From the IMG/VR virus record IMGVR_UViG_2737471834_000003: DNA of 6,514 nucleotides; one strand, written 5' to 3'. The position numbers and the translations under genes are program-made. A model generated the notes under the pieces. The model was given only the letters and a program-made list of their open reading frames with translations, did no database searches and was not told the DNA's origin. Source of the stretch: a virus (taxonomy: Duplodnaviria > Heunggongvirae > Uroviricota > Caudoviricetes). The number at the start of each line of letters is the position of its first letter. The stretch's first letter is position 1. This document shows, in pieces, positions 1 through 6,514 of the stretch.

Positions 1-291
1 GTTCTCCTGGCTGTCACGCCAGCGACTGATTTCACCGTATTTCTGATTTCTGGCCTTTTCCAGTATCTCCTCTGTCACCACAAACGGCGTGACCTCACCC
101 CAGGCCCCTGATATCAGCCCTGACCAGAGCCTTAACCCGAATTCTGTCGGGTCTGAAGCTCTGGCAGTATAAGGTACATATACCCGATGACTGTCATCAG
201 AACGGTCTGCCATGAACACCTCACAGGTAATGCTGCCGTCTTCATTAAAACGGGCATTGCGGACGTCCGCTTCTGAATTCCTGGTATCCAT
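1..291 (-). CDS. Unidentified ORF immediately downstream of the side tail fiber, 5' part only (97 codons, continues past window start); candidate tail fiber assembly/chaperone protein by position
   Basis: Hand translation of the minus strand from the ATG at 291..289 gives an open frame of 97 codons to the window edge ([41 protein letters not shown]...); the other two minus frames hit stops within ~130 nt. The ATG overlaps the stf TAA stop by one base (TAATG), with GAGGG 8 nt upstream. Absent from the ORF track because its stop lies outside the window. No similarity to lambda Tfa that I can recall; function assigned by synteny only. Confidence 0.5.
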   Translation of the reverse strand, partial: MDTRNSEADVRNARFNEDGSITCEVFMADRSDDSHRVYVPYTARASDPTEFGLRLWSGLISGAWGEVTPFVVTEEILEKARNQKYGEISRWRDSQEN

Positions 292-2012
292 TATTTCACC
301 CTCAGAAAAAGCATTTTCTCTTCAGCTTCTGCATTTCCGCAGGCCATCCATATTCCTGACTGTACCGGGTCAAGCCGCTCTCCGGCCAGTTCATCTCCGT
401 AACTTACCGCATCCTGAGAAGCACAGAACAGGTAACTCCCCACACCACCGGCTACCGGACGACCGGCAAACTGCCACCATGAAGTGGTACCCAGCCCACT
501 GTAAGCCCTGGTGAATGCCTGCCCCATACAGTTAAGGAAAATCTGACCTGAAACATTCTCATTCGTCGGAACCTGCCACATCAGACCATATGCATAATTC
601 CCCGCGGCACCCGGAACGGGGTGGTCTTCACAGGCAAGGTAGTGGTTATATTTCAGCAACGGGAACTGAAGGGCAGAATACATAAAACCATGAGCCAGAA
701 TGCCCGTGAATTTTTTCGCAGTCTTTATCCCGTCTTCCGGGTAAACTCCGCTGGGTCCCATGGGTCCCTGAGGCCCCTGTGGGCCGGTAGCTCCCCGGGC
801 ACCGGTATCACCTTTATCGCCTTTCTCACCTTTTTCTCCCTGAGGCCCGGTATCGCCCCGGTCCCCTTTCTCTCCCTTTTCACCACGGGGGCCCTGTGGG
901 CCGGTCTCCCCCTGCGGTCCGGGCTCTCCCTGTGGTCCTGGCGTTTTTGCAATCTCCCTGGCTTCCTCCAGTGCCTTCAGTGCCCCCTGCTCATGTTCAC
1001 CTGCTGTCGTGGCACTGTCTTCCGCCTGGCTGACCAGTTGCTGCACCTGCCCGGCCTGTAGCTCCACAGACTGGCTTACAGCCACAACACTGTCTGCCAC
1101 ATGCTGAACATTCAGAGCCACGGACTCCGTCTGCGCTTTTATCTGTGCACTCTCTTCTGCACGACTGGCGGCCTCTGTGGCAAAACCCTCTGCCTCATTA
1201 CGTGCCGTTACCGTCTTCTGTAAATCACTGCTTACCTGCCGTGCACTCTGTGCAGCTTCGCTGGCATGCGTCCCCGACTCCACGGCACTGGCTGAAGACT
1301 CACTGGCTGCCTGTTGTGCCTGCTCCAGCAGCCGCTCAGTATCCTGTTTATCCTGCTGAACCTGTCCGGCATTTTCTGCCATTTCTGCAGCCAGTATATT
1401 CACCTGCTGACGCTGTTCTGCCACAACCTCTGCATTTTTCTGCACCGCATCAGCAAGGGTCTGCGTATTATCTCTTGCCTGTGCAGCCTCCACAGCATAT
1501 TGTCCGGCCTCCTGCGCACTTCCGGCTGCAGACTCTGCATTTTTCTGAGACTGCACCTCATAATTCTGCGATTTCCTTTCACTTTCCCGGGCAGCGGACG
1601 CCGATTCTGCCGCTGCCGCGGCGTCTGCGCCTGTTGCCTCCTTATCACGGGTAACCTGCTCAGACAGCGTAATAACGGTATTCACCATTATCTCAAAGCG
1701 TTTCATCACCTCAGGGCGCAAATCGCCATCTTTGGGAGCATCCAGAAATGCATTCAGCGTATCCGGCTTATCCGTCGGTGTGACATAAATCTCACCGGCT
1801 TTTACCGGAGCCCACCCTTCACGGAGAAGAAAAACATCATAAAATCCTGGCTCGGCTTCGATTAAATACCGCCCGTTACTGTCCGTAATACATTCCGCCA
1901 CAATGTGCACAATCACCGTCGGACTCGTTTTTCTGGACCGCAATTCAATTGAACACGCCTGCACCGGTTTACCCGCACCGTCTTTCAGTACACCAGATAT
2001 CTGTACGGCCAT
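291..2012 (-). CDS. stf: Side tail fiber protein (lambda Stf-like N-terminal domain, Ala/Gln-rich rod, collagen-like Gly-X-Y repeats, unrecognised C-terminal domain), 573 aa
   Basis: Track ORF 291..2030 (-). Residues 7-125 of the track protein ([18 protein letters not shown]...[12 protein letters not shown]) resemble the N-terminus of lambda Stf as I recall it ([18 protein letters not shown]...RPEALRRFELMV). I place the start at ATG 2012..2010 rather than the track's TTG at 2030 because GGAG lies 6 nt upstream of the ATG and the lambda homologue begins MAV. It follows J directly, as stf does in lambdoid phages. Confidence 0.85.
747..938 (-). repeat. Collagen-like repeat: 21 uninterrupted Gly-X-Y triplets within stf, including an imperfect ~45-bp tandem duplication
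   Basis: Track residues 365-428 read [64 protein letters not shown], with glycine at every third position. On the plus strand, units beginning ggtatc at ~804 and ~849 (period 45) align at roughly 60% identity. Confidence 0.85.
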
Positions 2013-2060
2013 ATACACTCCATAAGTCAATGTCAGCCCCGGAAGAGAGGATTCAGGAAT

Positions 2061-2109: not shown

Positions 2110-5100
2110 TCAGCTAATCGTGATACCGGCTGTGGATTTTTTCATCACCACAACCAGCAAATCGCTGATACTTGCGGTGGGATACCAGTTATTCACCAGC
2201 CATGCTGACACCGAAAACTCCAGCGTCATGTGGCCGTGACCAGCTGGCATATCAATAACACCACTGTAAATCAGCGTATTATCCAGCGCGGTACGGTTAT
2301 AAATTTCAGCACCATTTTTCTTCACTATCAGGCGGCATGAGGAGTAAATATCAGTATGCTCTCTCTCATGCTTAGCGCCACTGAATGCCACCGCCGGAAT
2401 AACAATTTGCCGGTCAAACGGCTGATCGTCATAAACCCTGACGGTAATGGTCCCTGATGGCCACCGCTCCGGTGCCCGGGAGTCCCGGGGAAAAGCCTTA
2501 CCCACTGTTTTAACAATATCGCCTTCAATCTGGTTGGCTGACAGTTTTCCCAGAATCCGGCAGTTCTCATTTATCGTGACGTTGTTGAGTGTCCCGGAGT
2601 TCGCGTTCACGTTACCGCTGATATCCGCATTTTTCGCCGTCAGCCGCCCGTCCGGAGTCAGGGAAAACGCCGGAGGATTACCGCCACTGGTAATGGTGGG
2701 AGCCGTCAGATATTTCAGGAACACTTCATTCATGAATATCTGATCACCCTGACCAACAAACATCGGCTTTGTGTTGCCATTCGCAGGATTAACCATCGCA
2801 ATCCTGTCCGCCGCCAGCAGCACCTGACTCTGCATGCCGTCAGGGGTGTTCTCAATACCGGCACCAATACCCGCGATATAAAGGCGTCCGTCCTGCATCT
2901 GCTGCAGCTTCACAGCCCACATGCTGTTCAGGTTATTATTTGTATCAACCTGAACCTTCTGTATCTGCTGAATTGCCGCACTCTGGTCTTCCAGTTTCTT
3001 ATTGACGGTCTGCGTGATTTCATTGCTGACATCCGTAATGGACGTCCTGATTTCAGCCAGGTCAGGCGCAAGCTGACCGTTATCAATCTGCGTCCACAGC
3101 TCCTGAGCCAGATGGGTTTTCCCTATCTCGCCTTTGAAAAAATCCAGATAGCCGGATGCATCATCACTCGGCTGACCAACAGCCTCCACGAATGCCGATT
3201 TGCCAACGGTGTTCACACTGCGAACGTAAAAATAATAATCATGGCCCGGTTTGATATTGATACTGGCGGCTATCCAGTACAGCGCCGTGCCAAGATAGCG
3301 GGCTGTGGTTTCAACCTGCCTGATATCGGTAATCCGCTTTTCCGAGAACCAGAACTCAAACTGTACCGTCGGGTCATAAACGGCAAGATGCGGCGTGGCG
3401 GTTATCTGAAAATAGCCCGGCGTCAGCTCAATCCGCGACGGCACTGCAGGTGCGGCAATCCGGAACGATACCGATGCCGGATCGCCCTGCTGCCCCCACG
3501 CATTTACCGCCCGGACTGTCAGCCTGTAGTTCCCCAGCGCCAGCTGCCTGAAGCGGTATGTGGTTTCTGTCGTCCGGGCCGTGCTGACCAGCCGCTCACT
3601 GCCGTCGTCCGCTGCCACGGTCAGGCGAAGCATAAAGCTCACGCCCTTCACCACCTTCGGTGTGTCCCATCGCGCCAGCACCTGATATTCCCCGCTGTCT
3701 GCAGTGACTTCTGCGGTCAGGTGCTGCACCGCTGGCGGCGTGACACCATTCACCGTGCCACTCTGTTCGCCGTCAAAGTGCGCCCCGTTATCCACGATGG
3801 CCTCTTTTTCCGGCACATGCTGCACGGCGGTGATGGCATACGTGCCGTCGTCGTTCTCACGGATACTCACGCAGCGGAACAGGCGCTGGCGCAGCGTCGG
3901 CAGCTTCAGCCCCCATACGCTGTATTCAGCAACACCCTCAGGAACACGGCTCACTTTTACCTTCACGCCGTCGGTGACGGACTGAACCTCCACGCTGACC
4001 GGATTGCCACTTCCGTCAACCAGGCTTATCAGCGTGGTACCGGAGGATGGCAGCGTGATTTCACGGTCGAGCGTCAGCGTCCGGGTCTGGCTGTTCACCG
4101 CCAGCACACGACCACCGGTGCTGATACCGGCATAGTCATCATCGCAGATTTCAATAACATCGCCCGGTACATGGCGAAGCCCTTCTGCGCCGACGCTGAA
4201 ATCCACGGTCTGCGTCTCCAGCAGCTCCGTTTTAATCAGCCACAGCCCGGCGCGGTGTGCCTGCCCCCGGCTGGTACAGCCAAAGGCATCCATCTTCGTA
4301 ACATTACGACCGTAACGGGCAATGGCCTGCGTATCTTCAACAAGCTCTGTCGCCGTCTCCTGGCCGTTGTTCGGGTCAATCCAGTTCACCTCAACGGCAT
4401 TATGGCGGTCTTTCAGGGCGCTGAAGCTGTAGCGGAACGGCGCGCCATCATCCGGCATCACCACATTACTGCGGTTATAGGTCCACGCCTTATCCGATGG
4501 CCGGTCCTGCACGAACGTCAGCGTCTGCCCGTTCCATACCGGCATACAGCGCATCGCCGAGCAGAAATCACTGAGCACATCCCACGCCTTACGTTGTGTG
4601 GTCAGCCAGGCATTACAGGTGATGCGCGGCTCCGTGCCGCCAAAACCGTCCGGCACTGACTGGTCGCAGTACTGGCCGATGACATACAGCGCCCATTTAT
4701 CCACATCTGCCGCACCAAGACGTTTCCCCATGCCGTAGCGCGGGTGGGTCAGCATATCCCACAGACACCAGGCCGGGTTGTTGCTGTATGCCGGTTTTAA
4801 CGTTCCGTCCCAGATACCGCTGTATTGCCGCGTCTGCGGGTTATAGTTCGACGGAACCTGCAGAATACGACCACGAAAATGGTAAGTGCGGTTCACCTGC
4901 TGGCTGCCGAACTGCTCAGAATCCACCTGCACACCGACCAGTGCCGTGTTCGGGTAGCACTGTTTCACATCGATGATTTCGGTGTATGACGACCAGAGCG
5001 TTTTGTTCTGCAGCTGATCTGTGGTGCTGTCCGGCGTCATCCTGCGCATCCGGATATTGAACGGGCGCGGCGGCAGGTTACCCACCACCACCGATGCCAG

Positions 5101-5589
5101 ATACTGTGAGGTGGTTTTGCCTTTAATGGTGATGTCTTTTTCCGTCACCCAGCCACCGTTACGTTGTATCTGAACCAGCAGGCGGACTTCCGACGGATTC
5201 CGGTCCCCCTTTGAGGTGGTTTCCACCAGTGCCTGCACACCGAAGGTCAGGCGCAGACGGTCGATGTTTGCCGACGTGATGGTCCGGGTTATCGGCGTGT
5301 CGTATTTCACTTCCGCACCCAGTACCGTCTCGGAGCCGGAGGATTCAAACCCCTCCGGCGGTGTCTGCTCCTGTTCACCGGAACGGAACACCACCGTGGC
5401 ACCGGAAAAGTTGGTATTCCCCCCGCTGTCCAGTACCGGCGTACCATTCAGGCGGACACTTTTCAGCCCGTCAACCGGACCATAAACCGGTCCTTCACTG
5501 ATGGCGTCAATCACACTCAGCAACTGGGAGGATTTCAGGTTATCTCTGGCTTCACGGGGCGTATGCGCCTTACCGCCACCTTTACCCAT
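2110..5589 (-). CDS. J: Tail tip / central tail fiber host specificity protein J, 1159 aa
   Basis: Track ORF 2110..5592 (-). The protein ([34 protein letters not shown]...) is near-identical over long stretches to lambda gpJ as I recall it ([34 protein letters not shown]...), colinear for ~820 residues and then diverging. Start placed at ATG 5589..5587 (the track's first M is a GTG at 5592), with GGAGAG 3 nt upstream of that GTG. Confidence 0.97.
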
Positions 5590-5645: not shown

Positions 5646-6317
5646 TCAGCGACCAATCACCACTACCTGACCGCCGCCCCCCTCATCAGCCGTGCTGATT
5701 TCCTGTGAAATCACCCGCGATCCCACGAGCATTTCACCGTACAGAACCGGCAGAACATTGCCCTGGGCAACCATGTTATCCAGTGAGGAAAAATAGGTAT
5801 TCTGCTTACCGTTATCCGTTGTCTGCATGCGGGGCGTTTTCGGTTTCGGGGCCAGCATCTGCGCCACACCCCCCAGAATCATACTGGCACCGAGAGAAAA
5901 CAGGATACCGGTCATACCACCGGCCCCAATGGCTGCCCCCCATGCTGCAAGGGTGGCTCCGGCAGTAAAGAATGATCCGGCAATGGCGGCAGCCCCCAGA
6001 ACAATCTGGAATACGCCCCCTGACTTAGCCCCGGCGACTCTGGGAACAATATGAATCACAGCGCCGTCAGGCAGAGTCTCATGTAACTGCGCCGTTAACC
6101 CGGACGTGCTGACGTCCCGCCCGGCAATCCGTACCTGATACCAGCCGTTGCTCAGTTTCTGACGAAACGCAGGGAGCTGTGTGGCCAGCGCCCGGATGGC
6201 TTCTGCCCCCGTTTTCACACGCAGGTCGATGCGGCGGCCAAATCGTTGCAAATCCCCGTAAAGGCAGATGCGTGCCATGCCCGGTGACGCCAGACGGAGT
6301 GTGTGCGTCGCTGCCAT
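5646..6317 (-). CDS. I: Tail assembly protein I, 223 aa
   Basis: Track ORF 5646..6317 (-). The protein (MAATHTLRLASPGMARICLYGDLQRFGRRIDLRVKTGAEAIRALATQLPAFRQK...) has the same length as, and is almost identical to, lambda gpI as I recall it. Its ATG at 6317..6315 lies inside the 3' end of K, as in lambda. Confidence 0.95.
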   Translation of the reverse strand: MAATHTLRLASPGMARICLYGDLQRFGRRIDLRVKTGAEAIRALATQLPAFRQKLSNGWYQVRIAGRDVSTSGLTAQLHETLPDGAVIHIVPRVAGAKSGGVFQIVLGAAAIAGSFFTAGATLAAWGAAIGAGGMTGILFSLGASMILGGVAQMLAPKPKTPRMQTTDNGKQNTYFSSLDNMVAQGNVLPVLYGEMLVGSRVISQEISTADEGGGGQVVVIGR

Positions 6318-6514
6318 TTGTCGGTGTACCTCTCTCGTTTGCTCAGTTGTTCAGGAATATGGTGCAGCAGCTCGCCGTCACCACAGTAAATGGCGGCATG
6401 ATTGGCAACAGGCGAGCCAAAACAACACAGCAGCACGTCGCCTGCCTGTGCCTCATGCGGTGAGACCCGGTAAAAACCCTGTGTTTCAAGGTTATCCAGA
6501 TAGAGATTCTGACC
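6215..6514 (-). CDS. K: Tail assembly protein K, C-terminal 99 codons (N-terminus lies beyond the window end)
   Basis: Hand translation of the minus strand from the window edge gives GQNLYLDNLETQGFYRVSPHEAQAGDVLLCCFGSPVANHAAIYCGDGELLHHIPEQLSKRERYTDKWQRRTHSVWRHRAWHASAFTGICNDLAAASTCV*, matching the C-terminus of lambda gpK as I recall it (...NLYLDNLEATGLYQVPLSAAQPGDVLLCCFGSSVPNHAAIYCGDGELLHHIPEQLSKRERYTDKWQRRTHSLWRHRAW...). The track's start at 6436 is an internal GTG (Val), not the real start. Confidence 0.92.
   Translation of the reverse strand, partial: GQNLYLDNLETQGFYRVSPHEAQAGDVLLCCFGSPVANHAAIYCGDGELLHHIPEQLSKRERYTDKWQRRTHSVWRHRAWHASAFTGICNDLAAASTCV

Follow-up and report, generated by a model that had tools for sequence, protein, structure and literature searches.

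Gene content and domain layout

The window, that is, the whole 6,514-nt stretch of DNA that was analysed, carries genes K', I and J of a tail module and, directly downstream of J, a side tail fibre gene that encodes an uninterrupted run of collagen-like triplets. The features used below all lie on the minus strand.

2110..5589, minus: gene J (tail tip / central fibre), directly upstream of the fibre gene, with seven Pfam matches
291..2012, minus: side tail fibre gene encoding 573 aa, from the ATG at 2010-2012 to the stop codon at 291-293, identified by the ORF list, Pfam and PHROG
1617..2012, minus: PfN domain, aa 1-132, which attaches the fibre to the tail (PF08400, E=3.2e-40)
939..1616, minus: coiled-coil-like region of 226 aa, rich in Ala, Gln, Glu and Ser, assigned from composition
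939..1029, minus: conserved pre-collagen junction, the apparent 5' boundary of an exchangeable module, from similarity limits in relatives
750..938, minus: collagen-like block, 21 uninterrupted Gly-X-Y triplets, aa 359-421, from the triplet listing and Pfam
741..749, minus: 22nd triplet, GVY, at the border of the C-terminal domain and common to all alleles
294..740, minus: C-terminal domain, aa 425-573 (149 aa), delimited by homologue comparison and in no curated family
1..291, minus: 5' part of a DUF4376 gene, downstream of the fibre gene and running off the window, from its translation and PHROG 1141

Six of the seven Pfam matches of J are to gpJ or tail-tip families, and a homologue of 3480 nt is named gpJ. 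The collagen block is read in the ORF at 291..2030 on the minus strand, which holds the fibre gene; RefSeq homologues of this gene are 1722 nt long and named 'prophage tail fiber N-terminal domain-containing protein', and PHROG tail fibre families match its product. From the N-terminus, the order is PfN, coiled-coil-like region, collagen block and C-terminal domain. Residues 1-92 match residues 1-92 of lambda gpStf in PDB 9e7m (phmmer E=1.6e-21), and in Ur-lambda a collar made of twelve such N-terminal domains gives rise to four trimeric fibres (PMC12617516). The first-pass annotation had placed the block in a side-tail-fibre gene, and both the adjoining J gene and the match to the gpStf collar domain bear this out.

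The 226-aa region consists of A 22.6%, Q 13.7%, E 12.8%, S 10.6%, V 8.4%, L 4.4% and I 1.3%, and the junction at its end includes an 18-residue motif that is kept in distant relatives. On the other side of the fibre gene, the ATG of the DUF4376 gene overlaps the fibre stop codon as TAATG, and its product matches PHROG 1141 'tail fiber protein' at E=9.5e-26. Homologues of this downstream gene carry the DUF4376 name and are followed by a DUF1353 gene. Close homologues of the fibre gene were found in E. coli chromosomal prophages, near tape measure, L, K, I and J genes. In the ungapped divergence profile, a 1-nt offset in the spacer between J and the fibre gene throws the part beyond window position 2000 out of alignment, and that part was set aside.

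An uninterrupted collagen-like block

The block matches PF01391 at E=1.1e-15 with 57.6 bits against a cut-off of 27.2, far beyond chance, and the 21-triplet run described earlier is real. Its limits had been given as 747-938; the 21 triplets occupy 750-938, and starting at 747 brings in the Gly of the 22nd triplet. The X positions are filled by Pro (9), Glu (6), Asp (4) and Ala (2), and the Y positions by Gln (6), Lys (5), Thr (4), Arg (3) and one each of Pro, Met and Ser. Aromatic residues and Cys do not occur within the 21 triplets, and an RGD tripeptide is present (GDRGDT). Compared with the allele of relative L002, the block has a dN of 0.007 and a dS of 0.21 (dN/dS ~0.03); the collagen residues are thus under purifying selection.

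Two further ORFs in this region, at 621-1061 on the plus strand and at 725-952 in an alternative minus-strand frame, have no Pfam match and were taken as by-products of repetitive G/C-rich coding. A frameshifted database entry (P0001) reads into the latter frame.

Periodicity within the block

An internal 45-bp tandem duplication had been described within the block, and the tandem arrays were examined at both the protein and the DNA level.

849..893, minus: unit 1 of a 15-residue periodicity in its best register (triplets 6-10)
804..848, minus: unit 2 (triplets 11-15), matching unit 1 at 13/15 aa and 32/45 nt, with 5/15 third positions identical
892..942, minus: 18-nt (two-triplet) periodicity, GPQGEx, 2.8 copies (Tandem Repeats Finder period 18, 81% matches, score 67)

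The two units originally proposed share 12 of 15 residues, and a better register, triplets 6-10 against 11-15, raises this to 13 of 15. Triplet shuffling gave p=0.005 for a 15-residue period and, with every period of four triplets or more considered, p=0.014, so that the protein-level part of the claim stands above chance. The DNA-level part does not hold. The 45-nt units are identical at 32 of 45 nt (71%) and at only 5-6 of 15 third codon positions (33-40%), the same codon is used in only 5 of the 12-13 residues kept between units, and the longest exact match at a spacing of 45 is 8 nt. Tandem Repeats Finder, the check that had been proposed, reported no period-45 array at a minimum score of 30. 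The strongest DNA-level tandem array it gives in the block is the 18-nt array at 892-942, and the others have a period of 9 (806-833 and 965-984).

The same evidence speaks to age. Synonymous sites between the two units are near random, whereas dS between alleles of the same gene in the block is only ~0.2. A truly recent array looks different: in relative L003, Tandem Repeats Finder detects a period of 54 in 5.4 copies with 89% matches and exact repeats of 41 nt. The description of the duplication as recent is therefore not upheld.

The central GEKGEKGD(R/K)GDT pattern, present twice, could be the relic of an old duplication or the product of selection on the charge pattern, and we lean modestly towards the former; the data fit both origins. 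KGE and KGD pairs stabilise the collagen triple helix. If Lys-Gly-Glu/Asp pairs are favoured in a hydroxyproline-free helix built from a very small residue alphabet, the pattern might have arisen twice by convergence with no duplication at any time, which we regard as possible though rather unlikely. Consistent with convergence, no residual similarity is left at synonymous positions, unrelated phage collagens also contain GEK, GDK and GDT triplets repeatedly, and the p-value is only 0.005-0.014. Yet five successive triplets in the same order (13 of 15 residues) exceed what composition-only shuffles produce, and unit duplication is a demonstrated mode of growth in sister lineages. The single-unit state of one relative, L010, came from a 72-nt deletion, so it is uninformative on this point.

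A recent and unstable duplication, with fibre length shifting by gain or loss of 45-bp units, is very improbable. Its attractions are the periodicity at the protein level and the behaviour of relatives, in which collagen arrays of 10, 22, 28 and 34 triplets show growth unit by unit in steps of 6, as the L003 array illustrates. Against it, in addition to the divergence of the units and the missing period-45 array, no allele differs by 45 nt, the indels that are seen (9, 9 and 72 nt) lie at other junctions, and the collagen DNA of the independent genome L001 is identical. With synonymous sites so diverged, the 45-nt units would not be a recombination substrate. An unstable recent duplication, if true, would imply rapid length variation, and the data do not support this.

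Length variation in relatives

Expansion and contraction of the repeats had also been predicted, with triplet counts in homologues as the check. In-frame length changes do occur among relatives, and none of them uses 45-bp units. Two segments of the window are affected.

810..818, minus: 9 nt, GATAAAGGT on the coding strand (a GDK triplet), missing from the WP_050939531.1 allele in DNA alignments
843..914, minus: 72-nt segment, in effect triplets 4-11, deleted in the L010 remnant allele by DNA comparison

The WP_050939531.1 allele also carries one more triplet, ACGGGTCCA (GPT), between positions 753 and 752 of the window, and with these two compensating 9-nt indels its total is still 22 triplets. 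In L010, the gene is a truncated remnant that retains 14 triplets after the loss of 72 nt between 13-nt direct repeats; the L011 allele has such a 13-nt exact direct repeat, CCGGACCGCAGGG, at a spacing of 72. Every intact close allele found has 22 triplets (nine genomes or viral contigs with the lambda-type N-terminus, two with a different N-terminus and one metagenome contig), a constancy that rests on few independent alleles with two indel arrangements between them. Distant relatives range from 10 to 47 triplets. Length changes in this gene lineage would arise by slippage or recombination between direct repeats of 9-14 nt, which any Gly-Pro-Gln coding sequence would generate.

An exchangeable module and its distribution

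Divergence along the gene is uneven. Between the window and L002, dS is 0-0.03 in PfN and the coiled-coil-like region and 0.15-0.21 in the collagen block and C-terminal domain, and divergence climbs sharply below window position ~1027. The similarity of L011 and L012 to the window begins at gene nt 984 (window 1029), and that of L010 at gene nt 960 (window 1053). L011 and L012 carry the same collagen block and C-terminal domain on a different N-terminus (weak PF12571 match), followed by DUF4376. On these sequence comparisons, the collagen block and C-terminal domain behave as one exchangeable module. The two, together with the downstream DUF4376 and DUF1353 genes, probably travel jointly as a host-range cassette, with recombination taking place just 5' of the block.

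The C-terminal domain has a dN of 0.07 between the window and L002, against 0.003-0.008 in the other domains. It has no match in Pfam, PHROG or NCBIfam, in a profile search of the PDB only the collagen and PfN segments of the protein had matches, and tblastn found no match in 50,697 phage genomes. PF06820 (PfC) gave no match at E<=0.01 with the whole protein or at E<=1 with the C-terminal alignment. The domain shares 37-45% identity with the C-terminal ends of other PfN-collagen fibres of E. coli, and the motifs HPxPG and WWQFAG are conserved. A further profile search for homologues returned mostly partial, near-redundant E. coli sequences. An AlphaFold2 monomer model from a 13-sequence alignment (pLDDT 39.8, pTM 0.30) was too poor for use. 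The domain is presumed to be a trimerising, receptor-binding head.

The window allele is rare, being present in 8 of 5426 complete E. coli genomes, and megablast against the phage collection found the fibre gene in no deposited phage. Several of the prophages with the cassette come from cattle-associated strains.

A more far-reaching proposal is that stabilising selection holds the spacer at 22 triplets, and that block, C-terminal domain and DUF4376/DUF1353 form a self-contained cassette for host range, so far known from prophages alone, which is shifted between siphovirus- and myovirus-type fibres when recombination occurs at the conserved coiled-coil/collagen junction. We offer this as speculation that is probably wrong in its full form. 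Selection on length is suggested by the compensating +1/-1 triplet indels, by the same count on the myovirus-type N-terminus and by the fact that the sole shortened copy lies in a dead remnant gene. As an explanation of the compensated indels it is unproven, since a one-triplet gain and a one-triplet loss could readily coincide by chance.

A probable collagen helix in the distal shaft of a side tail fibre

The reading that best accounts for these observations, and that we hold to be very probable, is that a lambda-like E. coli prophage has a homotrimeric side tail fibre whose distal shaft is a collagen triple helix formed by the block, with length changes by way of short repeats and exchange as a cassette. 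The earlier proposal of a short collagen triple helix in a trimeric fibre finds support by analogy, in the architecture shared with the E. coli prophage collagen-like proteins (EPclPs) and in the trimeric lambda side fibres; trimer and triple helix are carried over from relatives whose C-terminal domain (PfC, PF06820) differs. Three PfN domains would dock on the tail-tip collar and the Ala/Gln/Glu-rich region would form a trimeric coiled coil, from which the conserved junction would pass the chain over to the Gly-X-Y helix. This helix would be ~18-19 nm long (63-66 residues at ~0.29 nm each) and stabilised by Pro in X together with Lys/Arg-Gly-Glu/Asp charge pairs, not by hydroxyproline. The 149-aa C-terminal domain would then trimerise and bind a cell-surface receptor. 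This mechanism has in part been shown for relatives, from which we infer it for the window protein.

The window protein might instead serve mainly as a bacterial surface adhesin that mimics host collagen, similar to streptococcal Scl or Legionella Lcl, possibly by means of the RGD tripeptide (GDRGDT). The protein does contain this tripeptide and has weak NCBIfam similarities to Scl2, Lcl and Scl1, but these are limited to the Gly-X-Y region and reach 39-61 bits against cut-offs of 325-500. Neither a signal peptide nor an anchor domain came up in family scans, the gene belongs to the tail module, with J on one side and fibre-accessory genes on the other, and the lambda Stf collar domain is present, all of which makes an adhesin highly improbable.

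Least credible of all is that the block reflects an error of sequencing or assembly or belongs to a pseudogene, with no collagen segment made: collagen coding DNA is rich in G/C homopolymers, two 1-nt G-run deletions split the gene in L007 (CP128576.1) and many database homologues are partial at contig ends, but the window frame is open from the ATG to the conserved C-terminus, the collagen DNA is identical base for base in the independent genome L001, the whole gene is 99.1-99.5% identical in L008 and L009, and dN/dS in the block is ~0.03. With an open frame into the C-terminal domain and an identical block in L001, the frameshift or assembly artefact named at the outset as a possible refutation was not found.

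Taken as a collagen shaft of a side tail fibre, the finding is a rare allele added to an already characterised family and not a new mechanism. Side tail fibres determine how fast lambdoid prophages adsorb and which hosts they can infect, and some of these prophages disseminate virulence genes among cattle-associated E. coli. Treating the collagen block and C-terminal head as the exchange unit, with the junction just upstream as the recombination site, should aid the reading of prophage mosaicism and fibre engineering. A practical consequence is that G/C homopolymers and repeats in such blocks break annotation, as in the one split gene and the many partial database entries encountered here.

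Comparison with known systems

Streptococcal Scl1 and Scl2 and Bacillus BclA form triple helices without hydroxyproline, carry a globular trimerising head and show length polymorphism of triplet repeats. These proteins have signal and anchor sequences and reside in the cell wall or exosporium, and they resemble the window protein in the Gly-X-Y region only, far below family cut-offs.

In antireceptors of Streptococcus thermophilus phages and in ORF8 of the virophage Guarani, collagen-like repeats flank or adjoin host-range domains; these repeats are called recombination hot spots, and an in-frame deletion accompanies a change of host range (PMC5601072; PMC7242381). The window lineage is similar in that the module boundary adjoins the collagen block and in-frame deletions occur, while the proteins and hosts are unrelated to the window fibre.

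Lambda (Ur-lambda) gpStf shares the homologous N-terminal collar domain and a gene at the end of the tail module, which in the window lies directly after J. Lambda side fibres are trimers (PMC12617516), and by analogy the window fibre would be trimeric and speed adsorption. Lambda Stf has no collagen block; it contains Phage_fiber_2 repeats, its distal region resembles gp37, and its assembly involves Tfa (PF02413). Pfam found no Phage_fiber_2 repeats (PF03406) in the window fibre, and the gene downstream is DUF4376 / PHROG 1141, not Tfa (Caudo_TAP, PF02413).

The closest parallels are the EPclPs, which experiment has shown to be trimers with a collagen triple helix (Ghosh et al. 2012, PMC3368898). 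For EPclA, a trimer, a CD triple-helix signal and a dumbbell morphology were demonstrated, and its equivalent of the 226-aa region is alpha-helical and trimeric (PMC3368898). Similar to EPclA (ECs2717 and paralogues in E. coli O157:H7 prophages), the window protein is encoded by a prophage side-tail-fibre gene and has PfN, an Ala-rich, putatively coiled-coil region and a single uninterrupted collagen block with Pro and Asp/Glu in X and Lys/Arg, Gln and Thr in Y. EPclP collagens in general have Pro (~48%) and Asp/Glu (~36%) in X, Lys/Arg, Gln, Thr and Ala in Y, and no Cys, Phe, His, Trp or Tyr (PMC3368898); the window block agrees with these preferences, with Pro in 9/21 and Asp/Glu in 10/21 of X positions and Lys/Arg (8), Gln (6) and Thr (4) in Y. 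The EPclP coiled-coil region (PCoil) is a low-complexity, Ala/Ser/Glu-rich segment nearly devoid of Leu, Ile and Val and predicted to be a trimeric coiled coil (PMC3368898). The region in the window is richer in Gln and Val and twice as long (~226 aa against 116 aa in EPclA). The collagen block, at 63-66 aa, is shorter than the 111 aa typical of EPclA, but EPclP collagen length varies in multiples of three and a 63-residue version, YYZ_gp70, is listed (PMC3368898).

The main difference lies at the C-terminus. EPclA ends in PfC (PF06820), whereas the window protein ends in the unrelated, uncurated 149-aa domain; with no PF06820 match, it is not EPclA or EPclB. Among relatives, P0052 resembles the description of EPclC, lacking PCoil and having two collagen blocks and a G-x-P-G-G-P-x-G interruption, and its C-terminal domain shares 43% identity with the one in the window protein. 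Compared by description only, we infer that the window domain corresponds to the 'PfC2' of EPclC/D. The window protein itself, read as PfN, a putative PCoil and Col with a non-PfC C-terminus, fits the classes with another C-terminus, EPclC*/EPclD.

Gene layout and domains of the fibre protein

The genes of the window all lie on the minus strand and together represent the distal end of a lambda-like tail module:

6320-6514 (-), K-like gene, partial
5646-6317 (-), tail assembly gene I (PF06805)
2110-5589 (-), tail-tip gene J, with seven Pfam matches (six to gpJ/tail-tip families)
291-2012 (-), fibre gene, 573 aa
1-291 (-), DUF4376 gene, start only, its ATG overlapping the stop codon of the fibre gene

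The fibre protein is divided as follows:

aa 1-132, PfN domain (PF08400, E=3.2e-40)
between PfN and the collagen block, Ala/Gln/Glu/Ser-rich region of 226 aa
Gly-X-Y segment, collagen block (Pfam Collagen match, E=1.1e-15)
window 294-740 (-), C-terminal domain (head) of 149 aa

A DUF4376 gene comes next after fibres with this head family in the window and in related loci L001, L002, L003, L007 and L012 without exception, in L003 within a P2-like context, and is followed by a DUF1353 gene in L001, L002 and L007, the loci that extend far enough. No canonical Tfa gene was found after the fibre in the window or in these five loci.

The collagen block and its periodicity

As proposed in the first-pass annotation, 21 Gly-X-Y triplets run without interruption in the frame of the fibre gene, at window 750-938. 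A 22nd triplet, GVY, lies at 741-749, and the annotated start at 747 takes in its Gly. The block is not an artefact, since the frame continues into the conserved C-terminal domain, where the alignment with homologues reaches the last residue, the 198 nt of the block are identical in the independent genome L001, and two IMG/VR contigs carry the whole fibre gene at 99.1-99.5% identity. An RGD tripeptide (GDRGDT; window 855-863, minus strand) sits within the triple-helical core and is kept in most alleles, with GDQGDT in its place in locus L011; the tripeptide is probably a by-product of the charge pattern.

The annotation had also described a recent 45-bp tandem duplication within the block. A periodicity is present in the protein, where the two units match at 12/15 residues, or at 13/15 in a register one triplet earlier, and where triplet shuffling equals it in 0.5% of trials at this one period and in 1.4% if all periods of 4 or more triplets are admitted. 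The DNA of the units is only 32/45 identical, however, with 5-6/15 third codon positions matching, the same codon at just 5 of the 12-13 residues that are conserved, and a longest exact match of 8 nt at spacing 45. Tandem Repeats Finder (minimum score 30) detected no period-45 array, reporting instead a period-18 array (GPQGEx, 2.8 copies, 892-942) and period-9 arrays (806-833 and 965-984). Locus L003, which encodes the 34-triplet homologue P0007, provides the contrast: its period-54 array (5.4 copies, 89% matches) has adjacent units that are 83-94% identical and an exact repeat of 41 nt, and is genuinely recent, unlike the window. Because the window units have diverged at the DNA level, a recent origin is unsupported. 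For the twofold pattern of the core, which could alternatively have arisen through convergence, we lean towards an old duplication.

Alleles and changes in triplet number

The fibre gene is rare: at megablast sensitivity, 5426 complete E. coli genomes include no more than 8 carriers. One carrier, from buffalo milk, is 99.3% identical to the window and the other seven are 95.9% identical; four of these seven were examined (L002, L004-L006), and all four encode the same protein, WP_050939531.1. Several of the seven strains were recorded from cattle, and the recorded hosts of carriers are cattle or buffalo (USA, Japan, China), with no host record for the others. The prophages occupy different chromosomal sites: that of L001 adjoins tRNA-Ser and the hya operon, and that of L002 lies near sitCD.

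Under a proper alignment, nine synonymous changes, one replacement and two 9-nt indels separate the collagen block of the WP_050939531.1 allele from that of the window. The GDK triplet at window 810-818 (GATAAAGGT) is missing from this allele and an extra GPT triplet (ACGGGTCCA) stands ahead of GPS, so that it likewise has 22 triplets. The same total is found in L008, L009, L011, L012 and L013 (IMG/VR and metagenome), and is constant in all intact close alleles. In the rearranged prophage of L010 (2267-2950), a remnant of the fibre gene truncated at its 5' end has kept the head; a 72-nt deletion, equivalent to window 843-914, leaves it with 14 triplets. The deletion junction coincides with a 13-nt exact direct repeat, CCGGACCGCAGGG, with a spacing of 72 in the L011 allele. 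Distant relatives with the head domain have 10, 11, 18, 22, 28, 34, 37, 41 or 47 triplets, one series rising in six-triplet steps. Counting triplets in homologues, as the annotation had suggested, thus reveals variation in distant relatives and in L010 but not among intact close alleles. The general idea of expansion and contraction is right, and known for the family, but the length events of this lineage run through short direct repeats, not 45-bp units.

Two exact direct repeats lie within the window block (741-938), one of 14 nt, ACCGGCCCACAGGG, at coding-strand offsets 33 and 150 (spacing 117), and one of 12 nt, GGGCCTCAGGGA, at offsets 90 and 162 (spacing 72); recombination at these pairs would delete 13 and 8 triplets, respectively, in frame. 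In Streptococcus thermophilus phages and a virophage, collagen-like repeats have been described as recombination joints beside host-range domains and as sites of in-frame deletion (PMC5601072, PMC7242381).

Locus L007 (CP128576.1, 1501-3220) carries the WP_050939531.1 allele, otherwise identical, with two single-G deletions inside the collagen block. They fall in a G5 and a G6 run, the counterparts of window 908-912 and about 858-863, and break the gene into ORFs of 394 and 159 aa (protein P0001). The split looks like a homopolymer sequencing error, with real pseudogenisation a conceivable alternative. Many database homologues of the head are labelled 'partial' and begin inside the collagen block at contig ends, which suggests that the repeats commonly break short-read assemblies.

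An exchangeable collagen-head module

Divergence between the window and WP_050939531.1 alleles, per domain (Nei-Gojobori method)
PfN: dS 0, dN 0.003
Coiled-coil region: dS 0.03, dN 0.008
Collagen block: dS 0.21, dN 0.007
C-terminal domain: dS 0.15, dN 0.07

The jump in dS between the coiled-coil region and the collagen block places a recombination boundary just upstream of the block, near window 980-1030. Collagen residues are strongly conserved and the head is the fast-evolving part.

Loci L011 and L012 (match at 2212-2950) confirm this boundary independently. They are 96-97% identical to the window in nucleotides only from window 1029 downwards, through the pre-collagen junction, the 22-triplet block and the head. 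Their N-terminus is unlike that of the window, with a weak match to PF12571 (tail-collar fibre N-terminal domain); a Phage_fiber_2 fragment and a Tfa-type gene lie upstream of the fibre gene and DUF4376 downstream, as in the window. Since the same junction, block and head are joined to another N-terminus, the collagen-head module seems to move between fibre types, with a joint approximately 30 codons upstream of the collagen block (window about 1029-1053). The junction segment, conserved even in 37-40% identical relatives, is where the coiled coil passes into the triple helix and is also the recombination joint.

The head matched no family in Pfam, PHROG or NCBIfam, and tblastn against 50,697 deposited phage genomes returned no match. 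An exhaustive HMMER search of 1.84 billion proteins (E<=0.001) found 25 representatives; apart from the near-identical P0121, the 19 at E<=1e-10 share 37-45% identity with the query. The relatives include C-termini of other E. coli PfN-collagen fibres, the head usually comes after a collagen block of 4-47 triplets, and the HPxPG and WWQFAG motifs are invariant. Despite being uncurated, the head forms a recognisable family.

Proposed structure and relation to known collagen-like fibres

By analogy with steps shown in relatives, the product would be a trimeric fibre anchored by PfN and continuing through a coiled coil and a hydroxyproline-free triple helix to a trimerising head. In the window protein the helix would be ~18-19 nm long (63-66 residues at ~0.29 nm each). 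Its stability would come from Pro at X positions and from Lys/Arg-Gly-Glu/Asp pairs, which cluster in the central GEKGEKGD(R/K)GDT x2 core; collagen peptide studies have established that such pairs are stabilising. The C-terminal domain is predicted to bind the receptor, and DUF4376 and DUF1353, putative accessory or chaperone genes, may encode a cognate chaperone or distal components of the fibre.

The PfN domain matches lambda gpStf residues 1-92 in PDB 9e7m (E=1.6e-21); the collar of Ur-lambda is built from twelve domains of this kind, and four trimeric side fibres extend from it (PMC12617516). The window protein has the architecture of the E. coli prophage collagen-like proteins (EPclPs; Ghosh et al. 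2012, PMC3368898), in which PfN, a PCoil region, the collagen block and a C-terminal domain follow in this order. EPclA has been shown to form trimers, to give a collagen CD signal that melts at 42 C and to have a dumbbell shape in the electron microscope, with a PCoil region that is alpha-helical and trimeric and a C-terminal domain that trimerises (PMC3368898). Through this homology, the annotated collagen triple helix in a trimeric fibre would hold.

In the window block, X positions are held by Pro (9/21) and Asp/Glu (10/21) and Y positions by Lys/Arg (8/21), Gln (6/21) and Thr (4/21), a usage that agrees with the EPclP table (PMC3368898). The collagen lengths tabulated there range from 27 to 322 residues, differ by multiples of three and include a 63-residue example, so variable block length was already documented for the family. 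Identity with EPclA or EPclB was rejected because the PfC domain (PF06820) is absent; matched by description, the head agrees with EPclC* and EPclD, the classes with a "different C-terminus". The window gene adds a rare allele to a family that is already known and characterised by experiment, and is distinguished by its longer coiled-coil region, short collagen block and uncurated head domain.
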